Positions 1 through 24,722 of a DNA stretch of 64,000 nucleotides are shown one piece after another. Position numbers and translations under genes: made by a program. Source of the DNA: Deltaproteobacteria bacterium (lineage in GTDB: Bacteria > Desulfobacterota > DSM-4660 > Desulfatiglandales > HGW-15); contig JAFDEF010000004.1 in the NCBI GenBank assembly GCA_019310485.1, positions 35,890-99,889 on the forward strand. Reading direction: 5' to 3'. The notes under the pieces are model-generated. The model did not search any database. It was not told where the DNA came from and saw only the letters and a list, made by a program, of their open reading frames with translations. The first letter of the stretch is position 1. Every line of letters begins with the position of its first letter.

Positions 1-687
1 TGTTACGTAATGAGCATAAAGTGCACCCCCAAGGGCGGCGAGAGCTGCTGAAAGCACAAAGACTTTGATCTTGTACCTGGCTACAGGGACTCCCATGGTC
101 TCGGCTGCATCTTCGCTCCGTTTTAAGGCCTGAAGTGCCCTTCCCACCCTTGAATTAGCGAGATTGATCAAGAAAATCACGGCACCTATAACAACCAGCC
201 ACACAAAAACATAATAGCTGGTGTCGGTATCAAGGACCAATCCTCCGAGGCTGAAAGTGGGGATCCCCACAAGCCCGGAAGGGCCGCCCGTGAGACTGCC
301 CCATTCTTTGAAAACAATACTTACGATCTCTCCAAACCCAAGAGTTGCCATGGCCAAATAGTGCCCTTTTAATTTCAGGGCGGGAATACCTAATATAAGC
401 GCTATGGCGCAAGCCAACAACACGGCCAGGACTACTGTAACACACGGGCTCCATCCAGTTTGTATTGAGAGTACTCCCGAGGTGTATGCGCCAATACCGT
501 AAAAGGCTGCCTGGCACAGGGACAGCTGGCCTGCGAAACCAATGAGCATGGTAAGCCCAAGGGCTACAAGAACATGAATCCCGACGAAGATCATCAAGGT
601 CTGGTAGTATAAATTGCGCTCCACCAGAGGGAACAAGAAAAGGGCTACGGCAAGGAACACCAGCATGTATAGGTTGTTCTTCGTCAT
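1..687 (-). CDS. Branched-chain-amino-acid-type ABC transporter permease, LivM-like (3' end runs off the window)
   Basis: Own reverse translation from ATG at 687 gives MTKNNLYMLVFLAVALFLFPLVERNLYYQTLMIFVGIHVLV..., a polytopic hydrophobic LivM-like protein. The start abuts the TAA stop of the upstream LivH-type gene. Absent from the ORF track because it is open at the window edge. Confidence 0.75.
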   Translation of the reverse strand, partial: MTKNNLYMLVFLAVALFLFPLVERNLYYQTLMIFVGIHVLVALGLTMLIGFAGQLSLCQAAFYGIGAYTSGVLSIQTGWSPCVTVVLAVLLACAIALILGIPALKLKGHYLAMATLGFGEIVSIVFKEWGSLTGGPSGLVGIPTFSLGGLVLDTDTSYYVFVWLVVIGAVIFLINLANSRVGRALQALKRSEDAAETMGVPVARYKIKVFVLSAALAALGGALYAHYVT

Positions 688-1566
688 TTATTCCACTTCG
701 TATTTTCCAAGAATTCCTCCCGGCCGTACAAATAGAACCAGGAGCATGATGAGAAAGGCAAACGCATCCTTGTACCCTGAGGAAATAAAACCCGCAGCAA
801 AGGATTCCACTATGCCAATAGCAAGGCCTGCCACTACAGCGCCGAAAGAGTTTCCCACTCCCCCGACAATCGCCGCGGAGAAACCTTTAATGCCCAGCAT
901 GGCACCCCTGTCGTATTCCATCAGCGTAATTGGAGTAATGATTGCACCTGCCACGGCGCCTATTGCGGCACTCATGGCAAAGCTCAGGGTTACCATCATT
1001 TTCACGTTAATTCCCATGCAGCTGGCGGCGTCACGGTTAATGGCACATGCCCTCAGAGCTTTCCCGGCCATGGTGAATTTGAAAAAATACGTAAGGAGTA
1101 ACACTACAAGCAGCGTCAGTCCTATCACCCAGAGAATCTGGGGCACAATAACGGCTCCGGCTATATGTATTGGTTTTGCATGGGTGAAAGGCTCAAGGGG
1201 ATGAGAGTCCTTGCCCCAGGTTATCATTGCAAGGCCCTTGAGGATGATGGACACCGCTATTGTGATCAGAATCATGGTCACAAGCGAAGGGTTTTTCAGT
1301 GTGCTGATGGTCAGTCTCTCAAACAGAATACCCACCACAGTGACGAGACCAACGGAGAGGAAGAAAGAGAGGAACATGCTCATGCCAAAGGTGGAATGAA
1401 ACATGATCATGGCCATACCACCAATCATGACAAATTCGCCCTGGGCAAAATTGAGCACATCCGTGGCATTGTATATGATATTGAAGCCTACGGCTACCAT
1501 GGCATAAATGCTGCCAACAGTTATTCCGGTCAAAAGCAATTGAAGACATTGGGCCGAAAGAGTCAA
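688..1566 (-). CDS. Branched-chain-amino-acid-type ABC transporter permease, LivH-like
   Basis: 292-aa ORF. N-terminus LLLTGITVGSIYAMVAVGFNIIYNATDVLNFAQGEF is the typical LivH/BPD_transp_2 signature. Hydrophobic throughout. Confidence 0.9.
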   Translation of the reverse strand: MTLSAQCLQLLLTGITVGSIYAMVAVGFNIIYNATDVLNFAQGEFVMIGGMAMIMFHSTFGMSMFLSFFLSVGLVTVVGILFERLTISTLKNPSLVTMILITIAVSIILKGLAMITWGKDSHPLEPFTHAKPIHIAGAVIVPQILWVIGLTLLVVLLLTYFFKFTMAGKALRACAINRDAASCMGINVKMMVTLSFAMSAAIGAVAGAIITPITLMEYDRGAMLGIKGFSAAIVGGVGNSFGAVVAGLAIGIVESFAAGFISSGYKDAFAFLIMLLVLFVRPGGILGKYEVE

Positions 1567-1617
1567 ATTAGAAACCCCTCTTGCAAAGGAAATGTAGCGG
1601 GCTCAGAGCCCGTATGT

Positions 1618-2754
1618 TCATTTTTCAACCACAGATGGATCCTGAACCCTTACCGGTTTTGCCTGTTTTCCGTATCCAAGAAACTGATCCATGAACACGA
1701 TAAAAGGTGTAAGGATATTCCTTTCAGCAAAGACCCTGACCATCCGATGAAGGAAGTTATTCGGCTTGTTCCACGGGCAGACCCTCACACAAACCGAGCA
1801 GTGGGTACCGTTCTTAACCCACCAATCGAAACATTTCATGGCATGGATCGGCCATTTCAGCATGCCGGGTGAATTGGAAACATCCCAAGCTTTATCTGTT
1901 CTTTCCCCTGTCATAAGAGCGCGGCTGGGGCAATACTTTGCGCACAGCTTACATTTCTCGCAAAATTTCTGGACTCCTATGTCCACGGGAGAATCCGGAA
2001 TCAAGGGCAGGTCGGTAAACACCTTGCTGATTCTAACTCTTGGCCCGAACTCCCTGGTGATAAGCTGTCCGCTTCGTCCCATCTCTCCCAGTCCTGCATC
2101 CACGGCCATGGGAATACTTATTCCGAGCTCATTAACTGCAGGAATGGCCTTGAACCCCAGCTCTGCAATAAAGGTGGCAAGGGAGCTGGCACACCAGGCG
2201 GCTTTCGAGTAACCGATGTCGGTTTCAGCCTCCACGTTCGGGGTGTACCGCATACCTTCATAATGCATTTCGCTGGCCAGCACAATCACCATCTTGTACT
2301 CGGGAGGGATTTCAATGGGGTCCCCGTCCCCGGCTGCATTCGTATACATCGCGTTGTGCAGGCCCCAGTGAGTGTAAATCCACAGAGGGTTTAACTTTGC
2401 AATACCCACAAGGTCTGCACCGATCCACAGCGCCGCCTCCTTGATAATCCTGGACATGGCCTGAGGATCGGGGTCTTTAAGCCTGTATTTCTTGTTGTAA
2501 ATGGGAGAAGTCTCTCTTGCCAGCGCGTTTTTCCTTAACAGATAGTCAACAGTACGCCCGGATACCCATCGTGCATGATCCAGGATCGTTTTTCCGGGAA
2601 TTTGCTTTGCGATATTCTCAACACTTCTTTTATGCATAAGGGTGTACTTGTCTGCTTCAACCGCGCCGCGGCTGAAACCCGTGTTGCGCTCGTCAAAACG
2701 GACAAGTTCCCCGGTAATATATTTTTTGTAAGTCGGTTCTTTTACTTTTCTCAT
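1618..2754 (-). CDS. Reductive dehalogenase (RdhA) family homologue, cytoplasmic type (no TAT signal), paralogue 1
   Basis: 378 aa. C-terminal FCEKCKLCAKYCP ... C-x12-CSVCVRVCPWNK matches the RdhA two-cluster pattern, in which the second cluster has one distant Cys. The N-terminus MRKVKEPTYKKYITGELVRFDER lacks an RRxFLK twin-arginine motif. No RdhB-like anchor gene is adjacent. Confidence 0.75.
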   Translation of the reverse strand: MRKVKEPTYKKYITGELVRFDERNTGFSRGAVEADKYTLMHKRSVENIAKQIPGKTILDHARWVSGRTVDYLLRKNALARETSPIYNKKYRLKDPDPQAMSRIIKEAALWIGADLVGIAKLNPLWIYTHWGLHNAMYTNAAGDGDPIEIPPEYKMVIVLASEMHYEGMRYTPNVEAETDIGYSKAAWCASSLATFIAELGFKAIPAVNELGISIPMAVDAGLGEMGRSGQLITREFGPRVRISKVFTDLPLIPDSPVDIGVQKFCEKCKLCAKYCPSRALMTGERTDKAWDVSNSPGMLKWPIHAMKCFDWWVKNGTHCSVCVRVCPWNKPNNFLHRMVRVFAERNILTPFIVFMDQFLGYGKQAKPVRVQDPSVVEK

Positions 2755-2900
2755 AGAAAATGATCTTCCGAGTTAAAGGTCTCCTGATCCAATTTTATTC
2801 ACCAGGCACTGCAAGAAAGCCGATCTCCGCGCACAGAGATCGGCTTCCACCTCTCACATACCCGGGGAGTTAAATCCCCTTGCCAAAATTCTAACCGGAC

Positions 2901-4052
2901 CTACTCCAGCAATTTCCAGTTTCCATTGACCACTTTAACCATCACCACGGATTCTTTTGTCAGGCCATTGTGGTTGGTGGGGGAGTAATTGTAAGTGCCG
3001 ACCACGCCAACAAAGTTTTTGAGATTTTCGATATAGTCCCTGATCTTGGCTCGATCAGGCCCCACAGCCTTCAGGGCACTGATAGCAATCCTTATGGCAT
3101 CATGAGCGTTACCGCCGAACTTGCTCACATCGTGCTTGAACCTAGACTCGTAAGCTTTCTTGTATTTCATCAGGATCGGCTTTTGAGGATCTGAATCAGG
3201 GAGCTGGTCAGCGACGATCAATTTTGGAGAAGGGAAGATGATTCCCTCCCCTGCTTTTCCCGTCATTTGGAGAAATTTTTTCGATGCAGCGCCATGGCTC
3301 TGGTATAAGGGTATTTTCATTGCCAGCTGCTTCCAGTTCTTTGTCACTATTGCTTCCGTGGGACCAACCGTCCAGCAGATCAGGGCCTGAGCATCAGTTC
3401 TCTGGATTCGCGTCAACTGAGCGGTCATGTCGGAGTCTTTTGGACCAAATTTCTCATCAGCCACCACCTGGATTCCAAACTTGGGTGCCACCGCGATCAG
3501 TTGTTCCCGGCCACTGTCCCCAAAGCCGTTTGAGACAGTGATAATCCCTACCCTTTTGATGCCGACCTTGGTCATGTACTGGTAAATCCTGGTTACGACG
3601 TTGGTATCGGTCTGAACGGTGTTAAAAACCCATTTCTTTGGTGGCTGCACAATCTTTCTGCTTGCGCCAAGAGCTATGTGGGGAATTTTTGCCTTTTGCA
3701 CAATAGGAATCACTGCCAGCGCGGATCCGCTCGACATGGGCCCAAGAATGATGGACACCCTATCCTTTTTGATCAGTTTCTGCGCCAGGGTAACCGCCCG
3801 GGTGGGTTTACCCTCTGTATCATAGACGATCAGCTTGATAGGGTGGCCGTTTATGCCTCCGGCCTTGTTGACTTCATCTGCAATCATCACAAAAGTGTTT
3901 TTCCCGGGCTCCCCTAGAAAAGAAAGGCCTCCGGTAACTTCCATGATTGCTCCAATCCTGTAAGGCTGTGCAGCCATACTCGGCGGCACCAAGAAGCAAA
4001 ATGCCGCAAGCAGCGCAATCCCCATTGCCAGGTATCGTTGAATTGCTTTCAT
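2901..4052 (-). CDS. Periplasmic substrate-binding protein, LivK/type-I (Peripla_BP_6-like)
   Basis: ORF 2901..4103. I prefer the internal ATG at 4052 (MKAIQRYLAMGIALLAAFCFLVPPSMAAQPYRIGA), which has a signal peptide and is preceded by GGAGAGGAGG. Body has typical LivK-like motifs (GGINGHPIKLIVYDTEGKP). Confidence 0.85.
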   Translation of the reverse strand: MKAIQRYLAMGIALLAAFCFLVPPSMAAQPYRIGAIMEVTGGLSFLGEPGKNTFVMIADEVNKAGGINGHPIKLIVYDTEGKPTRAVTLAQKLIKKDRVSIILGPMSSGSALAVIPIVQKAKIPHIALGASRKIVQPPKKWVFNTVQTDTNVVTRIYQYMTKVGIKRVGIITVSNGFGDSGREQLIAVAPKFGIQVVADEKFGPKDSDMTAQLTRIQRTDAQALICWTVGPTEAIVTKNWKQLAMKIPLYQSHGAASKKFLQMTGKAGEGIIFPSPKLIVADQLPDSDPQKPILMKYKKAYESRFKHDVSKFGGNAHDAIRIAISALKAVGPDRAKIRDYIENLKNFVGVVGTYNYSPTNHNGLTKESVVMVKVVNGNWKLLE

Positions 4053-4278
4053 AAATTTCCTCCTCTCCCTGATTGTATTGTTTGTTTCGGCGAATGCTAT
4101 CATATTTACTAGGGAATAAACCTTACCCTTTTGGCGGTAATTCTAGTTGCCAGCCCTACCTCTAGGGAAGCACAACAGGCTTGCGGACCGACTCCCAAGG
4201 CAAAAGGCTGCCTCCTTGTTGTTTCGTGGCTCATAGAGAGCTTTTTATAAATAAAAAGTAGCCTGAGTCAAGGTTTTT

Positions 4279-4296
4279 TTCACATTTTTCACATTT
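4279..4296. promoter_or_regulatory. Tandem 9-bp direct repeat TTCACATTT x2 in a divergent promoter region (candidate operator)
   Basis: Read directly: ttcacattt ttcacattt. It lies between the SBP gene (-) and the first XRE/cupin regulator (+). Function not established. Confidence 0.25.
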
Positions 4297-4367
4297 GGCT
4301 TGCTTTTTTTAAAAAATATTCAATAATATGAACACCCCCGGGTGAATCTAGCACTGGAGAGGCTCCC

Positions 4368-4955
4368 ATGTTGATGGTAAAAATTGGGACGAGAATAAAA
4401 GAAAATCGGTGGCGACAGGGTCTAACACTTAAGGATCTTTCAGAAAGATCAGGCCTTTCGGTGGGTCTTTTGAGTCAGATTGAGCGTGGAATTTCCTCCT
4501 CCAGCATCCGCAACATACAGAAGATTGTGAAAGGACTTGGTATCAGTTTTGCCAGTCTGTTTGATGACACTGATCCAGGTGAAAACGGTGCTCAGATGCA
4601 CCAAACATCCAGGAAAGGGATCCAAATTTCGGTCGTACGCGGTAAAAAGAGGAAAAAACTTCTCATGCCCTTTGGGGGTTTTATGGAGCTTCTCGCACCG
4701 GTTCACAATCACAAGATGGAATTTATCTTCCTTCGCTATCCGGTAGGAGCCAAAGTGAAGGAGCCATTTTCCCATGAAGGAGAAGAATGCGGTCTTGTAT
4801 TGAAGGGAAAACTTAAGGCTATTGTCGGTGATCAAGAATTCATCCTTGAGGCTGGTGACAGCATCTACTTTGACAGTACTATTCCTCACCGATGGGAGAA
4901 TATGGCCAAAACTGAAACCACGTTCATCTCAGCCCTCACACCCCCCTCATTGTAA
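4368..4955 (+). CDS. XRE-family HTH + C-terminal cupin transcriptional regulator (copy 1)
   Basis: 195 aa. The N-terminus ...RQGLTLKDLSERSGLSVGLLSQIERG is an HTH_3 motif. The C-terminal GDSIYFDSTIPHRWEN is a cupin motif. GGAGAGG lies upstream of the ATG. Confidence 0.85.
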   Translation: MLMVKIGTRIKENRWRQGLTLKDLSERSGLSVGLLSQIERGISSSSIRNIQKIVKGLGISFASLFDDTDPGENGAQMHQTSRKGIQISVVRGKKRKKLLMPFGGFMELLAPVHNHKMEFIFLRYPVGAKVKEPFSHEGEECGLVLKGKLKAIVGDQEFILEAGDSIYFDSTIPHRWENMAKTETTFISALTPPSL

Positions 4956-4985
4956 TCTCCGGGAGAGCCTTCCCTTTGTTTTTAG

Positions 4986-5014
4986 TTGACAAGTGGTTTA
5001 CTTTTGTTTACTAA
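4986..5014 (+). promoter_or_regulatory. Sigma70-like promoter candidate (TTGACA-17-TACTAA) with GTTTACT / TACTAA short direct repeats
   Basis: TTGACA at 4986-4991, a 17-nt spacer, then TACTAA at 5009-5014. GTTTACT occurs twice and TACTAA is tandemly repeated. Lies just upstream of the second regulator. Confidence 0.35.
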
Positions 5015-5054
5015 TACTAACCGATTTCAGGGTACTACCAGGGCCCTTTTGCAC

Positions 5055-5624
5055 ATGGAAAAAGAAATACAAAAAAGAATAAAGATGTATAGAAAAGACC
5101 GGGGCCTTACCCTTAGAGAGCTGGCTGAAAGGGCTGGGTGTACGCACTCCTATATTTCTCAGGTGGAAAAGGGAAAAAGTGTTCCATCTCTATCCATGGT
5201 GGGAAAACTTGCTTCCGCCCTTGAAGTTAGCGTGGTGGACCTTCTTAACGGTCTGCCGGGGGTAGAAGACAAAGGCGAATGGTATCTGAGCAAAAATGAT
5301 CGAAAAACAATAAATTATCCTGACGGCAAAGTTTCAAGCCAACTTCTGGTACCCCGGATTACAACCAGAAAGATGGAACCATTGATAAGTACAATAAAGC
5401 CTGGGGGCAGCTCTGATGCTGCCGAGGGGATGAATCACCCCCCTGGGACCGAGGAGTTTGTTTTCTTGATAAAAGGAGAGCTTGATTTTGCCGTAAACGG
5501 AAAGGAGATTCACCTAAAGGAGGGTGATACTCTCAGTTTTGACGGAAATCTGCCGCATAGCTGGGTGAACAGCAGCGGCAAAACAGCGGTGGTCCTTTTT
5601 GTGTTTACTCCACCCATATGGTGA
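5055..5624 (+). CDS. XRE-family HTH + cupin transcriptional regulator (copy 2)
   Basis: ORF 4986..5624. I prefer the ATG at 5055 (MEKEIQKRIKMYRKDRGLTLRELAERAGCTHSYISQVEKG). The C-terminus has a cupin motif (GDTLSFDGNLPHSWVN). Confidence 0.85.
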   Translation: MEKEIQKRIKMYRKDRGLTLRELAERAGCTHSYISQVEKGKSVPSLSMVGKLASALEVSVVDLLNGLPGVEDKGEWYLSKNDRKTINYPDGKVSSQLLVPRITTRKMEPLISTIKPGGSSDAAEGMNHPPGTEEFVFLIKGELDFAVNGKEIHLKEGDTLSFDGNLPHSWVNSSGKTAVVLFVFTPPIW

Positions 5625-5657
5625 GATGTGACCGGAAACAGAGGGGTAGAAGAAGTT

Positions 5658-8030: not shown

Positions 8031-8907
8031 CACCAGGATACTGACTCAAGAATTTGACTATTTTGCTCCTGAGTCAATAAAGCAGGTTGTTGAGCTGCTG
8101 GAAAGGCACGGAGAAGGGGCCAGGGTCATCGCAGGGGGGACAGACCTTATTAACCAGATGAAAGAGGAAAAGATGTCCCCCTCCTGCCTTGTAAACATCA
8201 TGAATGTTAAGGGCCTGCGCTACATCAAAGAGGATGAGGGACTTAGAATAGGAGCAGCAACAAAGCTCCGAGATGTGAGGGCTTACTGCTTTAAAAGCCG
8301 CTATGTTGCCCTATACGAGGCCATTTCCTCTTTAGGGAAGCCCCAGGTGTGGAATATGGGAACCATTGGGGGGAACCTCTGTAACGCCTCTCCTGCTGCT
8401 GACACTGCACCACCCCTGCTGGTTTTCAAAGCCCGTGTAAAACTTGTAGGCAAGGACGGAGAAAGGGAACTTTTGCTGGAGGATTTCTTTACAGGCGTTA
8501 ATAGCACTGTACTGCAGCCCACTGAATTGATGGTGGAAATTCACCTGGACCCTCCAGGTGATGGTGCGGGCAATGCTTTCCTGAAAGTAGCCAGGGTCGG
8601 AGCCGACATATCCAAGGTCAGCTGCGCGGTTTTTTTGAAAAGGCAGGGCCGGACTTGCACGGAGTGCAGGGTCGCCCTCGGTGCAGTAGCGCCTGTGCCT
8701 ATGAGGGTGAAGGTGGTCGAGGAAATGATTGAGGGTCGAGAAATTGAGGAATCTTTAGTGGCAAAGGCTAGCGAGATTGTTTCAGAGGAAGTTAAGCCGA
8801 TTGACGATATCAGGTCAAGTGCAGAGTACAGGAGACAAGTTGCCGCAGTGACTTTCAGGGATGTATTTTGGAAAGCCTGGGATCGGGCAATTGGAGGGAA
8901 AAATTGA
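8023..8907 (+). CDS. FAD-binding medium subunit of Mo-hydroxylase (CoxM/XdhB-like, M1)
   Basis: ARVIAGGTDLINQMK and GTIGGNLCNASPAADTAPPLL are the FAD_binding_5 signatures. The ATG at 8023 overlaps the L1 stop by 8 nt (ATGATTAA). Confidence 0.9.
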   Translation: MINTRILTQEFDYFAPESIKQVVELLERHGEGARVIAGGTDLINQMKEEKMSPSCLVNIMNVKGLRYIKEDEGLRIGAATKLRDVRAYCFKSRYVALYEAISSLGKPQVWNMGTIGGNLCNASPAADTAPPLLVFKARVKLVGKDGERELLLEDFFTGVNSTVLQPTELMVEIHLDPPGDGAGNAFLKVARVGADISKVSCAVFLKRQGRTCTECRVALGAVAPVPMRVKVVEEMIEGREIEESLVAKASEIVSEEVKPIDDIRSSAEYRRQVAAVTFRDVFWKAWDRAIGGKN

Positions 8908-9371
8908 ACAAGCGAAAAGTAACCTTCACTGTAAATGGAGAGAGACATGAGCTCGTGGTTGAGCCTAATGAGCTTTTGCTCAATGTGCTTAGAGAAAAGC
9001 TGGGGCTAACCGGAACAAAGTATGCCTGCGGCAAGGGCCAGTGCGGGGCTTGCACCGTTTTGGTTAATGGGGAATCTTTCTTAAGCTGCTTGACGCTGGC
9101 AGTTGCTGTTGATGGGGCGGAGATCCGTACAATAGAAGGCGTGGCTGAACCAGACGGCACTCTTGACCCAATTCAGGAGGCTTTTCTTGACAGCAGCGCT
9201 ATTCAATGTGGTTTTTGTACGCCGGGGATGGTCCTAATGGGCAGAGAGCTCCTGAATAGAAATCCGCGAGCCACAGAGGAAGAAATCAGAGAGCAGATCA
9301 AGGGCAACCTGTGCCGGTGCACTGGTTATTTTAGCATTGTCAGAGCCATAAAAAGCTGCTGCGAAAAATAA
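8904..9371 (+). CDS. [2Fe-2S] small subunit of Mo-hydroxylase (CoxS/XdhC-type, S1)
   Basis: CGKGQCGACTVLVNG plus CGFCTPGMV...CRCTGY are the two 2Fe-2S motifs. The likely TTG start at 8904 follows GGAGGG and overlaps the M1 stop (TTGA). The ORF-track ATG at 8868 is an alternative. Confidence 0.88.
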   Translation: MNKRKVTFTVNGERHELVVEPNELLLNVLREKLGLTGTKYACGKGQCGACTVLVNGESFLSCLTLAVAVDGAEIRTIEGVAEPDGTLDPIQEAFLDSSAIQCGFCTPGMVLMGRELLNRNPRATEEEIREQIKGNLCRCTGYFSIVRAIKSCCEK

Positions 9372-9397
9372 CTGTGATTGGAAGTGCACAATATTTA

Positions 9398-9474
9398 GGG
9401 GGGAAGGCAATGGATTTAGTGGTCAGCAGCCAGGGAGACTCGGAGCAGAAGAAATGCCCTTCCCCATTTTTATT
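9398..9474 (+). terminator. Possible terminator-like structure between the two Mo-hydroxylase gene sets
   Basis: GGGGGGAAGGCA (9398-9409) can pair with TGCCCTTCCCC (9455-9465), giving 10 bp with one bulge, followed by ATTTTTATT. The 45-nt loop is atypical. Confidence 0.25.
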
Positions 9475-9536
9475 GAGCTATTAGCAGCTATGATGTATAG
9501 GGCTTTTTTCCGGCGTTGAAAGGAGAAACCGCTAAA

Positions 9537-10881: not shown

Positions 10882-10899
10882 ACTAAGCGGAGATAAGAC

Positions 10900-16272: not shown

Positions 16273-17907
16273 ATGCGAAAGGGGACTATTTTCTTTGGAG
16301 TGGCTTTAGCATGGGGCTTTATTTTAGCATTCGTCCTCGGACTAGTGATGCCAACAGCAGCCCAAGGGAAAGAGCCTGTTGTTCTCAAAGCTTGGGCCCT
16401 GACCTATCCTGAACCCGTGGAAATCTGGCGAGTTTTGAGTGACGATTTAAGGGAATTGGGTATCCAGGTAAAATTGCGAAACGGTTCCATTGGTGAGTGG
16501 GTGGGGGACATCATTCGAAAAGAGAATCCCTACCACCTTGTCACCATGACTTGGTCGGGGTCGCCCGAGCGGATAGAGCCTTCTTGGTTCCTAACAGAAT
16601 TTTTCCACTCCAGCAGGATTGAAAGAGGGCGAAATTATGGCAATTATGTGAGTAAGAAGTTTGACGCTTTGATGAAAACTCAGTTGAGGGAAATGGATCC
16701 TGAAAAAAGAAAGCAATTGCTTTGGAAGGCCCAGGAAATTATCAACCGAGACAATGCCTTTTTCCCCATCTATCATCACGATATGATTCAAGCTTACAAT
16801 TGCGATAGAATTGAAGGCGTGATTCCGACGATGGGATCCTGCATCGGGTGGCCTTACAATCCTTGGACCTTTTTTAGGGCTAGGCCAAAAGGCAAGATCC
16901 GGGAACCCCGAGTTGTTAACAGAAAAGACCTGATGTCCACGAATCCTTTTGCGGCTCAAGAGGCCCAAACAATGGGCTGGATGAGGCTCATTTATGATAC
17001 GTTTGCCAAACGAGACAAGGATTCTAAGTTGATACCATGGGCGGCCGAATCTTGGAACATTGTTGACGATACCACGGTCGACATTGTTCTAAGGGATGGC
17101 ATGAGGTTTCATGATGGTAAGCTGGTCACCGTAGAGGATGCAAAATTTACCTTTGATTATATTATGAAATGGAAATTTCCTATGTTTTCTGCTGATTGGC
17201 GCAATATTGAGCATGTGGAGATTAGAGATGGGCGGACGCTGCGGTTCAAGTTGAAAAGTCCTTACGCACCCTTTGTCGCGAATATCTTGTTGAACACCTT
17301 CATCATACCCAAGCACATATGGAAAGATATCCCTAGTTCTGTTGGTGTGGCAAACCCAATGGACTGGCCCAATCCCACGCCGATTGGCAGTGGCCCTTAC
17401 CAGTTGGTGGAGTGGAAGAAGAAAGAGTACTTTCATCTAAAGGCAAACAAGAATCATTTTATCAAACCTAATTTTGATGGATTGTACTATCTGGTCGTCC
17501 CTACTACTGAAGGGATGATAGCTATGCTTGAAAAGCAACAGGCTGAAATTTATGGATTTGCCCTTGATGCGGTTCAGGCAAACAAGCTTGATGCTCTTCC
17601 CTATTTAAAAACGGTTAGAGTACCAAATCATTCAATAACAGAAATACGGCCAAATTTCAAGATGAGACCCACGAGCGACCCCAGTTTCAGGCGGGCCTTC
17701 CAATATGCTATTAACAGAAAAGGATTGTTGGACATTGTATACCAGGGCCAAGGGGTGGTAGCACACAATACGCCAATTATTCCCATCAATAAACCATGGA
17801 GCAATCCCAACGTACCATCCATTAAATTTGATCTGGGCAAGGCGACACAGATCCTTAAAGAAGCGGGCTATACATGGGATTCGAAGGGACGTTTGTGTTA
17901 CCCATAG
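16273..17907 (+). CDS. Family-5 (DppA/OppA/NikA-type) ABC substrate-binding protein, apparently circularly permuted
   Basis: 544 aa with signal peptide MRKGTIFFGVALAWGFILAFVLGLVMPTAAQG. Residues about 33-205 resemble the C-terminal third of canonical family-5 SBPs. Residues about 215-544 resemble the N-terminal two thirds (see finding). Confidence 0.8.
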   Translation: MRKGTIFFGVALAWGFILAFVLGLVMPTAAQGKEPVVLKAWALTYPEPVEIWRVLSDDLRELGIQVKLRNGSIGEWVGDIIRKENPYHLVTMTWSGSPERIEPSWFLTEFFHSSRIERGRNYGNYVSKKFDALMKTQLREMDPEKRKQLLWKAQEIINRDNAFFPIYHHDMIQAYNCDRIEGVIPTMGSCIGWPYNPWTFFRARPKGKIREPRVVNRKDLMSTNPFAAQEAQTMGWMRLIYDTFAKRDKDSKLIPWAAESWNIVDDTTVDIVLRDGMRFHDGKLVTVEDAKFTFDYIMKWKFPMFSADWRNIEHVEIRDGRTLRFKLKSPYAPFVANILLNTFIIPKHIWKDIPSSVGVANPMDWPNPTPIGSGPYQLVEWKKKEYFHLKANKNHFIKPNFDGLYYLVVPTTEGMIAMLEKQQAEIYGFALDAVQANKLDALPYLKTVRVPNHSITEIRPNFKMRPTSDPSFRRAFQYAINRKGLLDIVYQGQGVVAHNTPIIPINKPWSNPNVPSIKFDLGKATQILKEAGYTWDSKGRLCYP

Positions 17908-17929
17908 TATATGTGTATATAGTATGTAG

Positions 17930-17958
17930 TTGTCGAGGACGCCTTGCGTCCTCGACAA
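17930..17958 (+). promoter_or_regulatory. Strong intercistronic stem-loop after the SBP gene (13-bp stem)
   Basis: TTGTCGAGGACGC ctt GCGTCCTCGACAA read directly. There is no clear U-tract. It could be an mRNA-stability element or partial terminator that raises SBP:permease stoichiometry. Confidence 0.5.
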
Positions 17959-18063
17959 TTGTTGCGTACTGCCATCAGCAGCGAATAAAGGGGCTCTACT
18001 CCCCATAGCCAATCAAGCCCTAGGACCGTCCTGGGGAGGGGCGTTTCCGTCCGCTTAGGTCGC

Positions 18064-18933
18064 ATGGAAATGGGAGTTTGGAAACGGAATTTAAAGTTAA
18101 TATTACATAACCCGATGGGTATGTTTGGGGTTGCGACTCTTTCGACATTCGCGTTGCTTGCCATTTTTGCCCCCCTTATCATGCCCTATGATCCCATGAA
18201 GTGCCAATACATTGACGGGGAGCTGGCAAGGCTGCAGCCTCCCAGTATGCACTTCTTGTTGGGCACAACCCATTTTGGCCGGGACGTTTTGAGCCAAGTG
18301 ATTATTGGCTCGAGGGTGGCTTTGATTGTAGGATCACTGGCGGCTATTTTTCTTACTTTTATTGGAACTAATATCGGTTTGGTCGCTGGCTATTGTGGTG
18401 GTCGCGTAGACAGCTTGCTTATGCGGCTCACAGACATTGCTTTTGGGATCCCTTTCATCCCCTTTGCTTTTCTTCTGATTGCTTTGGTAGGCCCTTCGAT
18501 CTGGAATATTATTATCGTGATATCCTTTCTCATGTGGCGGACCACAGCAAGGGTGATCCGTTCTCAAGTCCTGAGTTTGAAGGAGCGACCCTTTATTACA
18601 GCTGCAAAGGTAAGCGGGGCTAGTCACTTGAGGATTATGTATGTTCACATCTTGCCCAATGTATTACCTATGTCTTTCTTATATATCGCCCTGGGGATTG
18701 CCTGGTCCACGTTATCTGAGGCAAGTCTAAGCTTTTTGGGTATAGGGGATCCTAGGATGATCAGCTGGGGGCAAATGCTTTATTATGCCTTTATTACCGG
18801 ATCCGCGCGTACTGCTTGGTGGTACGTATTACCTCCCGGAATTTGTATAGCTCTCTTCGTGATATCGGCCTTCATGGTGGGGCAGGCTTACGAAGAAGTT
18901 GTGAACCCCCGATTGAGAAAAAGAAATTCCTAA
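18064..18933 (+). CDS. Dpp/Opp/Nik-type ABC permease (DppC/OppC-like)
   Basis: 289 aa. N-terminal OppC_N-like segment followed by a BPD_transp_1 core (RLTDIAFGIPFIPFAFLLIALVGPS...PFITAAKVSGAS). Confidence 0.9.
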   Translation: MEMGVWKRNLKLILHNPMGMFGVATLSTFALLAIFAPLIMPYDPMKCQYIDGELARLQPPSMHFLLGTTHFGRDVLSQVIIGSRVALIVGSLAAIFLTFIGTNIGLVAGYCGGRVDSLLMRLTDIAFGIPFIPFAFLLIALVGPSIWNIIIVISFLMWRTTARVIRSQVLSLKERPFITAAKVSGASHLRIMYVHILPNVLPMSFLYIALGIAWSTLSEASLSFLGIGDPRMISWGQMLYYAFITGSARTAWWYVLPPGICIALFVISAFMVGQAYEEVVNPRLRKRNS

Positions 18934-18935
18934 GC

Positions 18936-19985
18936 ATGCAAGCAGCGATCGAAAATGAAAACGAGATGCTTTTACAGGTCGATGACCTGAAAGTGGATTA
19001 CCAAATGGAGGGAGCGGTAGGCAGGGCAGTGGATGGGGTTTCCTTTGCCCTACGAAAAGGGGAGTGTATCGGCCTGGTTGGGGAATCAGGCTCAGGCAAG
19101 AGCACAATTGCCAAGGCAATTCTCAAATTACTTCCTTCCAATGGTGCACTGGCTGGGGGAAGAGTTATTCTCAAGGGCAGAGATATAAGCCATTTTACGG
19201 AAGAGGAGATGGATGCCATCCGTTGGGCAGAGATCTCACTGGTGCCACAGAGTGCCATGAACGCCTTGAATCCTGTTCAACGAATATCCAGCCAGATGGT
19301 AGAGACGTTCCTGGCTCATCAGGCTAAGGCCGATTCCAGAAAGACCTTACTGGATAAATGTCAGCAGCTTTTTGAAATGGTTGGTCTGAGTAGAAATCGG
19401 ATTTTTGATTATCCACACCAGTTCAGCGGCGGAATGAGACAAAGAGCCACTATCGCTATGGCTATTGCCCTTGAGCCATCTGTGGTAATTGCCGATGAGC
19501 CAACCACAGCCCTAGATGTCATTATGCAGGCCCAAATCATTAATTTGCTGAAATCCTTGAGTGAAGATAAGGGAGTTTCCATTATTCTGATTACCCATGA
19601 TATATCCATTGTTGCCCAGATATGTCAAAGGGTTGGGGTTATGTATGCAGGGCGTCTTGTGGAATCCGGTGACATCTTGAAGGTATTTAATAATCCTTTT
19701 CATCCGTATACGATGGGTTTGAAGGCCGCCTTTCCTACGATCAAGGAACTGAAAAAGACCCTCATCTCTATTCCGGGAAGTCCTCCCTTATTGACTAAAC
19801 GGCTAGAAGGCTGCTGCTTTTCGGATAGATGCCCCTTTTCTATTGAGCAATGCCAGAGGGTAATCCCGCACACCGTTACAATTAGAGAAGACCACTATGT
19901 GGCATGCCACCGTATTGAATATGCGGAGCGCTTCAGAAAAGAAATTATCGATATTTTTGGAACCAGGGTCAGGGGCCAGTCGTAA
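18936..19985 (+). CDS. Dpp/Opp-type ABC ATPase (DppD/OppD-like)
   Basis: ATG at 18936, immediately after the permease stop. Walker A GESGSGKST, signature FSGGMRQR, Walker B VVIADEPTTALD, and a C-terminal oligo_HPY-type extension. Confidence 0.9.
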   Translation: MQAAIENENEMLLQVDDLKVDYQMEGAVGRAVDGVSFALRKGECIGLVGESGSGKSTIAKAILKLLPSNGALAGGRVILKGRDISHFTEEEMDAIRWAEISLVPQSAMNALNPVQRISSQMVETFLAHQAKADSRKTLLDKCQQLFEMVGLSRNRIFDYPHQFSGGMRQRATIAMAIALEPSVVIADEPTTALDVIMQAQIINLLKSLSEDKGVSIILITHDISIVAQICQRVGVMYAGRLVESGDILKVFNNPFHPYTMGLKAAFPTIKELKKTLISIPGSPPLLTKRLEGCCFSDRCPFSIEQCQRVIPHTVTIREDHYVACHRIEYAERFRKEIIDIFGTRVRGQS

Positions 19986-20974
19986 TGATTGAGGTGAAGG
20001 ATCTTCAAAAGTCTTTTGCTGTGAAAGAAACTTTTTTCAGTGCTTTTACTTCACTTCTCAAAAAAAAAGAGAAACGGATAAGGGCGGTAAATGGCATTTC
20101 TTTTAGCATCCATGCTGGTGAGATCATGGGGGTGGCAGGGGAGAGTGGCTGTGGAAAAACAACCACTGCCATGCTACTCCTTGGTTTGTATCGTCCTTCG
20201 GGAGGAAAAGTGCTTTTTGAAGGGATGGATATTTCCTCTCTGAAAGGAACAGAACTAAGATATTTTCGCAGAAAGGCACAGCTCATTTTTCAGGATCCTT
20301 ATGAGTCGCTAAATCCCAGGTTCACTGTGTACCGAACTATTGAAGAACCATTAATCGTAAATCGCCTTCGACGCAAAAGCGAACGCAGAGAAAAGATCAT
20401 GAAAGCTATGGAAAAGGCTAAATTAATGCCTTTGGAGGCTTTTTGCGATAAATACCCGCACGAACTGAGTGGCGGCGAACGGCAAAGGGTGTGCATTGCC
20501 AGAGCAATTGTCCTGGAGCCCGTTCTTCTGATTGCGGATGAAGCCACTTCTATGCTGGATGTATCCATCCGGGCCGGTATCTTGGAAATTATTAAGGAGC
20601 TAACAGAAGAAATGAAAATGGCTACGCTTTATATTTCTCATGATATGTCTCTTTTGGGAAGTATATGCGACAAGATTGGAATAATGTACGCGGGGGAGAT
20701 AGTGGAAATTGGAAGGTCTGAAGATATTATCCAATCTCCCTTGCACCCCTATACCAGAGCTTTAATTGAAGCAGTTCCAGTTCCTGAATTTCGGCGGGCT
20801 AAACTCAAACTGAAAGCCATTGCCGGGGAGCCACCGGATTTGGTTAATCTCCCCAGAGGATGCAGTTTTCGACTGAGGTGCGAAAGGGCTATTAAGGCTT
20901 GCCGGACATCAAGGCCAAAGCTTTTCGAGGTGAAACAAGGTCACTTTGTGGCCTGCCATCAGGTGGGAGACTAA
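19985..20974 (+). CDS. Dpp/Opp-type ABC ATPase (DppF/OppF-like)
   Basis: TAATG stop/start overlap with the previous gene. GESGCGKTT, LSGGERQR, LLIADEATSMLD. Confidence 0.9.
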   Translation: MIEVKDLQKSFAVKETFFSAFTSLLKKKEKRIRAVNGISFSIHAGEIMGVAGESGCGKTTTAMLLLGLYRPSGGKVLFEGMDISSLKGTELRYFRRKAQLIFQDPYESLNPRFTVYRTIEEPLIVNRLRRKSERREKIMKAMEKAKLMPLEAFCDKYPHELSGGERQRVCIARAIVLEPVLLIADEATSMLDVSIRAGILEIIKELTEEMKMATLYISHDMSLLGSICDKIGIMYAGEIVEIGRSEDIIQSPLHPYTRALIEAVPVPEFRRAKLKLKAIAGEPPDLVNLPRGCSFRLRCERAIKACRTSRPKLFEVKQGHFVACHQVGD

Positions 20975-20976
20975 TC

Positions 20977-21948
20977 TTGGAGAGGAGATATATCGCAAGT
21001 CGGATAGCTCAAACCATCATTACGCTTTACGCGGTATTAACGCTGATGTGGGTCCTGTTTCGTCTTGTCCCCGGAGATCCTACAGCTATGTTCTTAAGCG
21101 GCCGATTGTCACCTGAAGATGTTGAGGCTATAAGAAAATTATGGGGGCTCGATCAGCCTTTACACGTCCAATATTTCAAATATATGAAAAATCTTTCCAT
21201 GGGTGATCTGGGAATATCCTTTTCCTACCGGGAGCCAGTGCTTAAGGTGATGCTTCCAGCCCTTTTCAATACATTAATTCTCATGATTCCTTCTATATTG
21301 ATGGCCATTGTAGTTGGCACTCTCATGGGCACCAATCTGGGATGGAAGAGGGGAAGCGCACGCGAGAGAATAGGGGTGGTGCTGTCCTTGTTTGTGCGGT
21401 CTTTTCCTGTGTTCCTAACCGGTATTATTGTTTTAATGATCTTTGTCCATCTGCTTGGGTGGTTTCCATTGGGAGGGATGAGGACCATTGGCGCATTTGG
21501 TCTTTCATGGTGGGAGCGATTTCTGGATGTGAGCCATCATTTGGCTTTACCCTTTGGGGTTGCATTTCTTTACTATGTTGGGGATGTCGTGGTTATATCA
21601 AGAACGAGCATGTTAGAAATGATAGGAGAAGAATTTCTCCAATTTGCCAAAGCACGAGGTCTATCCGACAAAAAGGTTAAAAAGATTGCAATGCGCAATG
21701 CCATTATCCCTGTTATTACTTACTCCACAATACTCATTGGTTTTGCTTTTGGTGGGCAGGTTTTGCTCGAAGTTGTCTTTGCTTGGCCGGGGGTTGGACG
21801 GCTAATGGTGAATTCCGTTCAGATACACGATTACCCGGTTGCTCAGGCAGCCTTTTTTCTCATGGCTACCGCCGTCATTATTGCCAATTTGCTGGTCGAC
21901 TTTTCTTATGGCTATCTTGATCCGCGGATTTCAATCCAAAAGCGCTAG
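20977..21948 (+). CDS. Dpp/Opp/Nik-type ABC permease (DppB/OppB-like)
   Basis: ORF 20899..21948. I prefer the in-frame TTG at 20977, after AGGTGGGAG (LERRYIASRIAQTIITLYAVLTLMWVLFRLVPGDP, the typical DppB N-terminus). Confidence 0.85.
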   Translation: MERRYIASRIAQTIITLYAVLTLMWVLFRLVPGDPTAMFLSGRLSPEDVEAIRKLWGLDQPLHVQYFKYMKNLSMGDLGISFSYREPVLKVMLPALFNTLILMIPSILMAIVVGTLMGTNLGWKRGSARERIGVVLSLFVRSFPVFLTGIIVLMIFVHLLGWFPLGGMRTIGAFGLSWWERFLDVSHHLALPFGVAFLYYVGDVVVISRTSMLEMIGEEFLQFAKARGLSDKKVKKIAMRNAIIPVITYSTILIGFAFGGQVLLEVVFAWPGVGRLMVNSVQIHDYPVAQAAFFLMATAVIIANLLVDFSYGYLDPRISIQKR

Positions 21949-21959
21949 CAGAAAAGGGA

Positions 21960-21994: not shown

Positions 21995-23179
21995 ATGAAG
22001 AAGTTATCTCAACCCTATTACAAGAAATATATTACAAGCGAATTGAAACGTTTTGATGAAAGGCACACCGGATTCAGTCGAGCTGCTAAGCAGGGGGATA
22101 GGTATACGCAGATCTACAAAAACGGTGTCAAGAATATTGCAAGAAAGGAGCTCGGCAAGACCATCTTCGACCATTCCATGGCGGTGGCGTCAAAGAGCGT
22201 CGACCAAATCCTCCGTAAAACCGCTTATGCTAGGGAAGCAGTTCCGGCACAAAATAGAACTTTCCGCTTAAGGGATCCTGACCCTGTGGCCATGAGCAGG
22301 ATTGTCAAAGATGCGGGAAAGTGGTTCGGTGCTGATCTAGTAGGCGTGACCAAGCTCAATCGCTTATGGGTTTACACCCACTGGGGACTCCACAATGTTC
22401 GTTACACCAACGCGGCAAAAGAGGGAGACCCTGTGGATATTCCTTCACAGTATAAAAACGTTATAGTTATGGTTCACGAGATGGATTATGACGCGCTGGC
22501 CCGCAGTCCCCATCGAGAGCCCGCAACAAACATGGGGTATTCGCGGATGGCGTGGACAGCGACCATGCTAGCTACCTTCATCGGGGAACTTGGGTATGTT
22601 GCGATTCCATCAGGCAACGAGTTGGGGATCAATATCCCTTTTGCTGTGGATGCTGGATTGGGGGAAATGGGCCGTAACGGGCTTCTCATCACACGGGAGT
22701 TCGGACCGAGGGTGCGTATCAGCAAGGTTTTCACTGACCTGCCTCTAGCGCCCGATGCTCCCATTGACATCGGTGTTCAACGGTTTTGCGAGAAGTGTGG
22801 GCGTTGTGCCGAATCATGCCCTAGCCGAGCTATCATGTCCGGCGAAAGAACGGATAAGGCATGGGATGAGTCCAATTCGGAAGGTCTCCTTAAGTGGCCT
22901 GTTCGGGCTATGCGGTGTTTTGAATGGTGGGTGAAAAACGGCGGGGGATGTTCCGTGTGCATCCGGGTCTGTCCGTGGAATAAGCGTAACAACTTGATAC
23001 ACAAGTGCGTCAGGCAATTTGCGGAAAGGGATCTTTTCATCAAGCTTATCGTCCAGTTGGACAAGCTTGTAGGATTTGGTCGACAACGAAAAGAGCCGGG
23101 CTACGCCACTTGGCAGGATCCGTCTGTGACGCAGACAGGTCCCTCCCCAGAGAATGTTTTAGATGCCCATGGGTCATGA
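21995..23179 (+). CDS. Reductive dehalogenase (RdhA) family homologue, cytoplasmic type, paralogue 2
   Basis: ORF 21839..23179. I prefer the ATG at 21995 (MKKLSQPYYKKYITSELKRFDERHTGFSR), collinear with paralogue 1. FCEKCGRCAESCP ... CSVCIRVCPWNK. No TAT motif. Confidence 0.75.
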   Translation: MKKLSQPYYKKYITSELKRFDERHTGFSRAAKQGDRYTQIYKNGVKNIARKELGKTIFDHSMAVASKSVDQILRKTAYAREAVPAQNRTFRLRDPDPVAMSRIVKDAGKWFGADLVGVTKLNRLWVYTHWGLHNVRYTNAAKEGDPVDIPSQYKNVIVMVHEMDYDALARSPHREPATNMGYSRMAWTATMLATFIGELGYVAIPSGNELGINIPFAVDAGLGEMGRNGLLITREFGPRVRISKVFTDLPLAPDAPIDIGVQRFCEKCGRCAESCPSRAIMSGERTDKAWDESNSEGLLKWPVRAMRCFEWWVKNGGGCSVCIRVCPWNKRNNLIHKCVRQFAERDLFIKLIVQLDKLVGFGRQRKEPGYATWQDPSVTQTGPSPENVLDAHGS

Positions 23180-23309
23180 TGGGGGCCGAAAACCCAGGCT
23201 GACACTCGAATTTGAAAGAAAAGTTCTATGCCTGCAGAAAAACGTGGAATGAAGTATGATCTGGAGATTGACCTCGGATACCGATGATTATGAAAAGGAG
23301 AATATTATA

Positions 23310-24722
23310 ATGGAAAACAAAACAATTTTGTTGAAGGACGCGGACTTTGTGGTTAGGTACTCTTCCAGAGTAGATGCGTTCGCATCAGTGGTTATTCAAG
23401 GAAACTTGATCATCGAAGTGGGTGACAGCGAGGATCTCAAAGAGAAGTATCAATATGACGAGGTATACGATTGCAAGGGAAAGGTAGTCTTGCCAGGTTT
23501 AATTAACTCTCATACCCACTGTAATGAAACCATGATGAGAGGCTTGGGGCACCAGCTTAAGTTCCACGACTGGGTAGATAACGTTATCCTTCCCATCGGT
23601 GCCGCCATGGAAAACATGGATGAAAATTTGTATACATGTCTTGCCCAGATGACAGCCATGGAGGCGGTGGCCAGTGGTACCACGTCCATCATTGAACACA
23701 GTGTCAATTTTGGGAAAAGGCATGTATACACCATAGCGACAGCGTTGCAGGATTTTGGAATCAGAGGGGCTGTGGCCAAAGGGGCAGAGGATTTTTCGCC
23801 TCTGGACAGGGGCCACGTGGGCTCCATAGAGGAGGAGATCAGGGAGACGCAGGGATTCTTGGAGAGATGGAAAGTCCAGGGGAATGGCCTCATCAAGGCA
23901 TGGGTAGGGCCTTCGGGGATTGAGGGGAAGACCACGGGGGGATGTACTGGAGATCTGCTGAAGGAGCTTAAAAAGCTGGCGGATTCCTATGACACGCGGT
24001 ACCATACTCATTTAGCTGGAAATATCTGGGAGGTCGAGAATATTCGTAGGGAAAAAGGGATGGCCGGGAGTGTGGCCTTTGCAGATTCGCTGGGCATCCT
24101 GGATGAGAAGACTTCGCTTGCACACTGTATTTGGGTAAGTCATGGAGAGGATGAAATCCTAAGAAGGGCAAAGCCTCAGATTTGTCATTGTCCAAGCTGC
24201 AATCAAATCAATGGCCTTGGCATCATCCCATTGGTCGAGCTGCGCAAGCAGGGAACAGTTTGTGCAATTGGTACAGATGGGGCGCCCCAGAATGACTCCT
24301 TGGACATGTTTAGAGAGATGAGGCAGGCGGTCCTTTTGCAGAAGATCCGTGCCCTGGATCCAGACATCATGGGGCATCTTGATGCCTTTCAGATGGCTAC
24401 AGAGTCGGGCGCAAAGGTGCTAGGGATAGAAAACCTTGGCAAGATCGAACCGGGATATTTGGCCGATATCATTATCATCCAGCGTAAGGGAAACCTATTT
24501 CTTACGCCCATGTACGATCCTATCGATACCTTGGTCTATGCAGGCTCTGGAGGAAGAGACGTTGCCATGACAATGGTTAACGGCAGAGTGCTTTACAAAG
24601 ATGGGCAATTTAGGACGGTTGATGCGGAAAAGGTTATCTCCACGCTGAAGGAGGCAAGTAGCCTAATGCCGGTACCAGGGGATAGGTTTTCCTGTATTTA
24701 CAGCCCTGGGGCCGTGTTGTAG
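23310..24722 (+). CDS. Amidohydrolase-superfamily enzyme (ATZ/TRZ - SsnA - nucleobase deaminase-like)
   Basis: ATG at 23310 after AAAAGGAG. PGLINSHTHCNE (HxH metal ligands), YHTHLAG, HCIW, AIGTDGAPQND (Asp ligand). Confidence 0.8.
   Translation: MENKTILLKDADFVVRYSSRVDAFASVVIQGNLIIEVGDSEDLKEKYQYDEVYDCKGKVVLPGLINSHTHCNETMMRGLGHQLKFHDWVDNVILPIGAAMENMDENLYTCLAQMTAMEAVASGTTSIIEHSVNFGKRHVYTIATALQDFGIRGAVAKGAEDFSPLDRGHVGSIEEEIRETQGFLERWKVQGNGLIKAWVGPSGIEGKTTGGCTGDLLKELKKLADSYDTRYHTHLAGNIWEVENIRREKGMAGSVAFADSLGILDEKTSLAHCIWVSHGEDEILRRAKPQICHCPSCNQINGLGIIPLVELRKQGTVCAIGTDGAPQNDSLDMFREMRQAVLLQKIRALDPDIMGHLDAFQMATESGAKVLGIENLGKIEPGYLADIIIIQRKGNLFLTPMYDPIDTLVYAGSGGRDVAMTMVNGRVLYKDGQFRTVDAEKVISTLKEASSLMPVPGDRFSCIYSPGAVL

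Follow-up and report, generated by a model that had tools for sequence, protein, structure and literature searches.

The window analyzed here is a 64,000-nucleotide (nt) stretch of contig JAFDEF010000004.1 from a Deltaproteobacteria bacterium (assembly GCA_019310485.1), and all positions refer to it. At its left edge, a gene for a protein of the reductive dehalogenase family (RdhA paralogue 1, RdhA1) lies inside the operon of a Liv-type ATP-binding cassette (ABC) importer, between the genes for the substrate-binding protein (SBP) and the permeases. The genes of this operon in the window are:

2901..4052, minus strand: SBP, periplasmic member of the HAAT (Liv-type) family of binding proteins (Peripla_BP_6, E 6e-59)
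1618..2754, minus strand: RdhA paralogue 1, 378 amino acids, predicted cytoplasmic, reductive dehalogenase family (TIGR02486)
688..1566, minus strand: LivH-type permease with a TTG start (BPD_transp_2, E 2.9e-40)
1..687, minus strand: LivM-type permease, incomplete at the window edge (BPD_transp_2, E 1.1e-34)

The gaps between the SBP, rdhA, livH and livM genes are 146, 51 and 0 nt in the window sequence, and gene order, coordinates and gaps agree to the base with those given in a preliminary description of this DNA. The mechanical open reading frame (ORF) of the SBP extends to 4103; the ATG at 4052, which is preceded by GGAGAGGAGG, was chosen as the start, and from there the protein has a Sec-type signal peptide that ends between SMA and AQ. 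Metagenome contig L090, which is the window's own contig (100% identical), extends the operon past the window edge with the full livM gene (317 amino acids) followed by livG and livF, and the operon ends at a convergent pyrE-like gene. The unit is thus SBP-rdhA-livH-livM-livG-livF, and window and L090 together contain the complete HAAT importer gene set (Peripla_BP_6 SBP, two BPD_transp_2 permeases and two LivG/LivF-type ATPases). In GC and GC3 content rdhA does not differ from the SBP, livH and livM genes; a recent horizontal insertion was rejected for this reason, and the gene is taken to be an old resident. A mobile element or island was likewise rejected as context, the remainder of the window being housekeeping (pantothenate synthesis, FtsY, SMC, GlmM).

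RdhA1 scores 216.8 bits against the reductive dehalogenase (RDH) model TIGR02486 (cut-off 160.35; profile positions 3-314 of 314) and 52.6 bits against the QueG model TIGR00276 (cut-off 200), which matches in the ferredoxin part only. Among solved structures it is closest to PceA (4uqu, E 1.5e-58) and Desulfitobacterium PceA (8q4h, E 5.7e-56); the matches to the catabolic NpRdhA (E 6.5e-26) and to QueG (E 5e-7) are weaker. In the HMMER alignment Y182, N208 and R241 correspond to Y246, N272 and R305 of PceA, the proton-donor tyrosine of that enzyme and its two partners. Among 27 clade members Y182 and N208 are invariant, and R241 is conserved in at least 90%. The eight cysteines of the two Fe-S motifs, C265/C268/C271/C275-P276 (CxxCxxCxxxCP) and C319/C322/C326-P327 with the distal C308 (CxxCxxxCP plus distal Cys), are invariant in the same set. 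With a score above the TIGR02486 cut-off, the PceA-aligned active-site positions and both Fe-S motifs, the family assignment made earlier is confirmed. The N-terminal 90 residues have no relationship to PceA, yet among clade members they are highly conserved. An AlphaFold2 model of RdhA1 (mean pLDDT 74.7, pTM 0.78) was compared with solved structures using Foldseek, which gave query TM-scores of 0.68-0.74 for PceA (8q4h and 4ur3), approximately 0.65 for NpRdhA and 0.36 for QueG; a nitroreductase-like, cobalamin-binding core fold is predicted.

Neither of the two RdhA paralogues of the window contains a twin-arginine (RR) motif or a hydrophobic segment. The maximum 19-residue hydropathy of RdhA1 is 1.28, the model TIGR01409 for twin-arginine translocation (TAT) signals did not match it, and its ORF cannot be extended upstream because it is bounded by a stop codon. 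No small ORF with several transmembrane segments, as expected for RdhB, was found within 1-6000 or 20000-26500, and the gaps flanking the two rdhA genes are 146, 51, 46 and 76 nt. The preliminary description had placed the enzyme in the cytoplasm, with neither TAT signal nor RdhB partner, and the lack of an RR motif, a transmembrane segment and an RdhB candidate agrees with this. Since it is encoded inside an importer operon, the enzyme must work in the cytoplasm. RdhA1 also lacks the C-terminal NAD(P)H-ferredoxin reductase module and the N-terminal vestigial B12-like domain of the self-sufficient type, and aligns only to residues ~347-606 of the 704-residue 4ras chain. By these sequence features RdhA1 is predicted to be a soluble, cytoplasmic member of the RdhA family that belongs neither to the respiratory class nor to the self-sufficient class of 700 amino acids. 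A protein search returned 794 relatives at E ≤1e-20; more than 100 of these are about 380 amino acids long and at least 56% identical. The relatives come mostly from uncultured 'Deltaproteobacteria', Desulfobacterota and Syntrophorhabdales, and are annotated in the database as 'reductive dehalogenase' or, wrongly, as 'epoxyqueuosine reductase'.

The linkage between rdhA and importer genes was analyzed from both sides. On the enzyme side, neighbourhoods on long contigs were inspected and Liv, Opp and other genes were mapped on 89 loci by tblastn; loci with at least 52% identity to RdhA1 were taken as clade loci, those below 52% as distant. A Liv permease is encoded within 5 kb in 12 of the 17 clade loci, compared to 5 of the 62 distant-relative loci (Fisher p = 5e-7). 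Four gene orders are found:

order A, SBP / rdhA / livHMGF: window, L001, L010, L018, L134, L136
order B, SBP-livHMGF / rdhA / aminotransferase or urocanase: L005, L006, L007, L013, L015, L017, L019
order C, rdhA / SBP-livGFHM: L003
order D, rdhA / aminotransferase with no importer nearby: L008, L009, L020

Between orders A, B and C the SBPs share only ~20-30% identity, and they fall into at least three unrelated groups, about 25% identical to one another, so that the enzyme clade was paired with different binding proteins more than once. Unrelated SBP groups in three gene orders argue for repeated selection of the pairing.

On the transporter side, a metagenome scan with the window SBP yielded 42 loci, which were mapped for rdhA and liv genes. 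Where the SBP homologue is at least 63% identical and enough downstream DNA is available, rdhA lies between the SBP gene and livH in 12 out of 12 loci (L090-L092, L094-L101, L104); in a variant, L105, rdhA is located immediately upstream of the SBP gene. In the homologues with 41-58% identity, livH directly follows the SBP gene and rdhA is absent (12/12). This split shows that the rdhA insertion is a stable trait of one orthologous transporter lineage and is absent from its nearest sister operons. This comparison of homologous Liv operons, which the preliminary description had proposed as a possible refutation, came out in its favour: the SBP-rdhA-livHMGF order is present in every readable orthologous operon, and only more distant Liv operons are without rdhA. 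The order is shared by many uncultured bacteria from sediments. Altogether, the frequency of this arrangement is well beyond that expected by chance. The proposal that the enzyme acts on the imported compound is supported, though not proved, by this conserved linkage.

A second Liv-type ABC system in the window (40375-45140) is without rdhA and provides an internal contrast; its SBP gene is on the plus strand, and livM, livH, livF and livG are on the minus strand. Of the 80 genome loci, a single one comes from a cultured organism, Desulfocarbo indianensis SCBM (L028, LBMP01000002.1). It encodes a 47%-identical, TAT-less RdhA relative that has no Liv genes nearby; the strain may be a starting point for experiments, but its protein falls outside the importer-linked clade.

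The second rdhA gene of the window is located next to an importer of another type:

16273..21948, plus strand: Opp/Dpp-type ABC importer (SBP_bac_5, OppC, OppD, OppF, OppB; Pfam), preceding paralogue 2
21995..23179, plus strand: RdhA paralogue 2, 394 amino acids (Fer4_16, Fer4_7)
23256..24722, plus strand: amidohydrolase, deaminase/chlorohydrolase (TRZ/ATZ, SsnA) group, immediately following paralogue 2 (Amidohydro_1, E 1e-55)

Paralogue 2 is 63% identical to paralogue 1 and starts 46 nt after the end of the OppB-type permease gene (21948). For the amidohydrolase every NCBIfam match is below its cut-off. No orthologue of paralogue 2 with more than 63% identity is present among the first 89 loci; a second protein search identified the closest database relative, P0046 (70%), at locus L135, in the gene string OppC-OppD-OppF-OppB-rdhA-amidohydrolase that is also found in the window. 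Because the order is kept in L135, the earlier suggestion that the importer theme is repeated for paralogue 2 holds. In the Opp-type SBP (16273-17907, plus strand) the SBP_bac_5 domain begins at residue 252 (profile 1-284), and the C-terminal OppA region (profile 410-511) maps to residues 60-169, which may reflect a circular permutation or a domain swap. The mechanical TTG starts of 18816-19985 and 20899-21948 (both plus strand) overlap the preceding genes by 75-118 nt; judged by where homology begins, the true starts are probably internal, for instance near 18966 and 20980.

The nearest solved relatives of the window SBP are 3sg0, 4dqd, 3ukj, 3tx6/4jb0, 3uk0 and 7ylt (E 5e-44 to 9e-39). Apart from 4jb0 and 7ylt, these are probably aromatic-acid binders of Rhodopseudomonas palustris. 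The entry 4jb0 is CouP of R. palustris with ferulate bound (PMC3610893), and the accession 7ylt occurs in a paper on IadK2, an SBP specific for indole-3-acetate (PMC10374108). Solved entries deposited as branched-chain amino-acid binders first appear at E 1e-23 (3td9), E. coli LivJ and LivK are not among the solved-structure matches of the SBP, and the LivJ-type model NF011933 gives 65.7 bits with a cut-off of 477. The label 'Liv-type' used before is therefore valid for the transporter family, as the HAAT gene set shows, but not in the strict sense of LivJHMGF, and it should not be read as branched-chain amino-acid transport since the SBP resembles aromatic-acid binders. The window SBP likely binds an aromatic acid, and these similarities make an aromatic acid the more likely imported substrate than a branched-chain amino acid. 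RdhA-less sister operons (L112, L113, L117, L118) are flanked by IorAB genes (indolepyruvate-type 2-oxoacid:ferredoxin oxidoreductase), and also by PaaK-type (phenylacetate-CoA-ligase-like) genes and a gene for an ACT-pair protein, a set known as an aryl-acid module of anaerobes. The SBPs of order B resemble true amino-acid binders (8wch, 4n0q, LivJ) and aminotransferase genes follow rdhA there, so the clade members at these loci probably see amino-acid-like substrates.

For a comparison of the binding pockets, the SBPs were aligned to CouP at ~30% identity, and the positions contacting the 4-OH and the 3-substituent of the ring were compared:

CouP Q305: K in 10 of 10 RdhA-linked SBPs; T, S or N in RdhA-less SBPs (V in the most distant, L119)
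CouP E50: G or A in RdhA-linked SBPs; E or Q in RdhA-less SBPs (Y in L119)
CouP H309: N or D in RdhA-linked SBPs; H or Y in RdhA-less SBPs

The window SBP has K at the position of Q305, G at E50 and N at H309, as well as P at the carboxylate-binding R197. As a lead and nothing stronger, the added positive charge and space near ring positions 3 and 4 would suit an ortho-halogenated phenolate.

Two features of the minus strand are relevant for the transcription of the operon:

2811..2848, minus strand: strong, GC-rich hairpin in the spacer between SBP and rdhA, followed by UUUCUU (-25.5 kcal/mol)
4244..4271, minus strand: promoter-like site upstream of the SBP gene, TTGACT (4271-4266), 16-nt spacer, TATAAA (4249-4244), pattern match only

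The 146-nt spacer between SBP and rdhA has a folding z of -3.5; the hairpin in the 51-nt rdhA-livH spacer is not significant (z = -0.8). A strong hairpin soon after the SBP stop codon occurs in 12 of the 13 listed architecture-A spacers, the exception being L134; the 13 represent about 10 distinct sequences (L092 and L094 are identical, as are L097 and L136). These hairpins are unrelated in sequence, range from -21 to -42 kcal/mol and usually have no U-tract. The hairpin at 2811-2848 may be a terminator-like element or an mRNA stabiliser, and may even be a real terminator. Because of this terminator-like hairpin in the 146-nt gap, co-transcription of rdhA with the SBP gene is unproven. A hairpin after the SBP gene is a common device of ABC operons that keeps the mRNA of the binding protein above that of the downstream genes. 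By analogy, the hairpin most likely sets a high ratio of SBP to enzyme and permeases and does not isolate rdhA. A consensus scan found no promoter-like site between the hairpin and rdhA, and an internal promoter there was rejected on this ground. The same scan missed the TTGACT-16-TATAAA site, since its -10 hexamer ends in A. No Rfam match to a riboswitch or other known RNA was found in the 5′ leader or the spacers (gathering thresholds for the whole window; E ≤1 for 1-5000). Divergent from the SBP gene lie candidate regulators of the operon, and a similar regulator is encoded divergently from an rdhA in L133:

4368..5624, plus strand: two tandem XRE-HTH/cupin regulators (HTH_3 and Cupin_2 in both)

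The region between the two paralogues contains, besides these two XRE/cupin regulators, genes for two xanthine-dehydrogenase-family enzymes, a carbamate kinase, an aspartate-carbamoyltransferase-like protein and a GntR regulator, and some of these genes are also found with the operon in L001, L010, L096 and L098. At 5628-13212 and 13239-15158 (plus strand) lie two complete xanthine-dehydrogenase-family sets with differing subunit orders, then the carbamate kinase and pyrB-like carbamoyltransferase genes; this pair, or the carbamoyltransferase gene alone, follows livF in L001 and L098. The xanthine-dehydrogenase-family, carbamate kinase and carbamoyltransferase genes occur with the operon in at least L001 and L098, but we do not take them to demonstrate that the substrate is a halogenated purine or pyrimidine. 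Their pairing may be biosynthetic or simple synteny, because the carbamoyltransferase scores as an ordinary pyrB and pyrE adjoins the operon.

Other neighbours are found at related loci. Genes for a ~700-amino-acid cytoplasmic Mo-oxidoreductase (Fe4S4 type) and a URO-D-family protein are located directly before SBP-rdhA in L001 (5422-8580), L094 (436-3651), L104 (1239-4395) and L136 (103-1121), and after rdhA in L133 (9198-12310); in the window the pair is not beside the SBP-rdhA unit. In L009 (7155-8633) and L134 (2828-7594), genes for an MttB/MtmB-type methyltransferase, a corrinoid protein and an ornithine-cyclodeaminase-like protein adjoin clade members, which suggests a link of the RdhA clade to clusters for the catabolism of methylated amines or betaines. 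The order-B loci L005 (11185-14295), L006 (6755-8804), L013 and L015 contain a conserved 126-amino-acid ORF without family match. Its position, like that of a hutU-type urocanase gene (423 bits, cut-off 375), is either in the interval from the Liv genes to rdhA or immediately behind rdhA. In L005, FTCD-like and amidohydrolase genes are present and a histidase gene is not listed. Further downstream in the window, the minus strand at 27107-34336 encodes three large redox proteins one after another: a GltD/NfnB-like protein (492 amino acids), a fusion of a NuoG-like protein with a DHOD-B electron-transfer module (841 amino acids) and a NuoF-like and GltD-like fusion (1039 amino acids). Together they may make up an electron-bifurcating complex of the flavin-based type and could conceivably supply low-potential electrons.

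The gene identities, the absence of export signals and the conserved linkage point to a six-gene operon that couples the uptake of a halogenated aromatic acid to its dehalogenation in the cytoplasm, a reading to which we assign a probability of roughly 55%. The six genes would be co-transcribed. The SBP would capture a halogenated aromatic or heteroaromatic carboxylic acid in the periplasm, candidate ligands being halogenated hydroxyphenyl- or indolyl-acetate, -pyruvate or -propionate. ATP-driven uptake through the LivHMGF-type translocator would follow, and the soluble RdhA, with B12 and two [4Fe-4S] clusters, would then reductively remove the halogen using low-potential cytoplasmic electrons from ferredoxin or flavodoxin. 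The dehalogenated aryl acid could enter aromatic catabolism or amino-acid metabolism. Paralogue 2 would do the same job for a different compound, which would be imported by the Opp-type system and, once processed, handed to the adjacent amidohydrolase.

Several observations weigh against this reading. The neighbours of the clade (aminotransferases, urocanase, MttB/URO-D methyltransferase-like proteins, Mo-oxidoreductases and xanthine-dehydrogenase-family enzymes) indicate no single substrate class, nor a clearly halogenated one. The pocket comparison rests on alignments of low identity, and with a strong, UUUCUU-tailed hairpin between the SBP gene and rdhA, the latter is maybe transcribed much less or from its own start.

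Mainly because the neighbour genes do not identify the substrate, we keep as a live, though rather unlikely, rival that RdhA1 is no dehalogenase but a B12-dependent reductase cleaving another carbon-heteroatom bond (for example to a hydroxyl, thiol or ammonium group) in imported aromatic or N-heterocyclic metabolites. The genomic contexts are mostly those of nitrogen-compound catabolism (hut-like genes, aminotransferases, MttB/URO-D, xanthine-dehydrogenase family, carbamate kinase) with nothing specific for halogens, and QueG demonstrates that the fold can reduce other substrates. However, conservation extends to the Tyr, Asn and Arg residues that align with the active site of PceA, the best structural matches are genuine dehalogenases, and the protein clears the RDH cut-off by a wide margin but falls well short of the one for QueG (52.6 vs 200 bits). 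If the rival were true, the enzyme would catalyze a routine step of anaerobic nitrogen-compound catabolism and a reaction type new to the RdhA/QueG superfamily.

Similarly doubtful is the idea that the organohalide, once imported, is used as an electron sink in the cytoplasm, in 'facilitated fermentation' or redox balancing and possibly with ferredoxin-dependent energy conservation, and not as a source of carbon or nitrogen. Such a role is proposed for TAT-less RdhAs of marine anaerobes (PMC4959651), and the NuoF/GltD/NuoG-like fusion proteins at 27107-34336 could handle low-potential electrons. Yet catabolic genes (aminotransferase, urocanase, amidohydrolase) directly follow many clade rdhA genes on the same strand, which fits further use of the product, and ATP-driven import merely for electron disposal would be costly. 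That the adjacency is meaningless, with rdhA an independently transcribed passenger of the Liv operon kept by close genome relatedness, is very improbable: a terminator-like hairpin does precede the gene and many architecture-A loci come from related uncultured Desulfobacterota, but the pairing recurs with unrelated SBP groups, in other gene orders and with an Opp-type importer, rdhA is lost exactly where the pocket residues of the SBP change, and the enrichment is strong (p = 5e-7).

Marine and freshwater sediments contain thousands of orphan rdhA genes without TAT signal or RdhB, whose substrates and purpose have been puzzling since the first metagenomes and single-cell genomes. In the importer-linked clade each enzyme is accompanied by a binding protein that is soluble and easy to express, so that the substrate can be sought directly, by determining the ligand with thermal shift assays or calorimetry. 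Should the ligands turn out to be halogenated aryl acids or derivatives of amino acids, dehalogenation coupled to uptake would give anaerobes a dedicated way to remove bromine, iodine or chlorine from natural organic matter before consuming it. This would bear on halide release during early diagenesis and could provide a source of oxygen-sensitive but compact single-subunit dehalogenases for biocatalysis.

Compared to known systems, RdhA1 is closest in sequence and fold to the respiratory PceA enzymes (4uqu of Sulfurospirillum multivorans; the Desulfitobacterium RDH complex 8q4h), with which it shares the two Fe-S motifs and the Tyr/Asn/Arg positions. Unlike PceA, it is without TAT signal, RdhB partner and membrane link and is encoded in an importer operon; it is ~90-120 residues shorter at the N-terminus, where it has the clade-specific conserved segment of 90 residues. 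NpRdhA (4ras, 6zy1) and BhbA are cytoplasmic, non-respiratory enzymes that act on halogenated aromatic acids such as 3,5-dibromo-4-hydroxybenzoate to enable their catabolism, which is the same logic as proposed for RdhA1. They are oxygen-tolerant enzymes of aerobes, ~700 amino acids long, with a vestigial duplication of the B12 domain and an NAD(P)H reductase domain. The 378-amino-acid RdhA1 is without these extra domains, its sequence match to NpRdhA is much weaker than that to PceA, and NpRdhA and BhbA are not known to be embedded in an importer operon.

A 'simplified cytosolic type' of RdhA-like proteins of ~395 amino acids was named in 2025 from Desulfobacterota and Chloroflexota, and is reported with IclR/MarR regulators, beta-oxidation genes and galactose genes as neighbours (PMC12219181). 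Genes for RdhAs without TAT signal and RdhB are described from Desulfatiglans and marine Dehalococcoidia, with facilitated fermentation, detoxification or substrate unmasking as proposed roles (PMC6129605, PMC4959651). The importer-linked clade is like these proteins, as described, in having no TAT signal, transmembrane segment or RdhB and in its phyla and habitats. Around such rdhA genes the three papers report either the neighbours just named or 'few syntenic genes', and none of them reports a conserved place inside ABC importer operons, which distinguishes the present clade. A full-text literature search likewise found no link between RdhA and ABC importers; its coverage is incomplete and the absence is no proof.

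The transporter belongs to the same family and has the same gene set as CouPSTU of Rhodopseudomonas palustris and the IadK2 system of Variovorax, whose SBPs are among its nearest solved relatives (PMC3610893, PMC10374108). In their operons, unlike in that of the window, no enzyme gene separates the SBP gene from the permease genes, and the ring-contact positions of the window SBP differ from those of CouP (Q305, E50, H309, R197). Short cytosolic RdhAs as such are thus already known; new is their conserved coupling, in several independent forms, to a dedicated uptake system, which offers a handle on the substrate.

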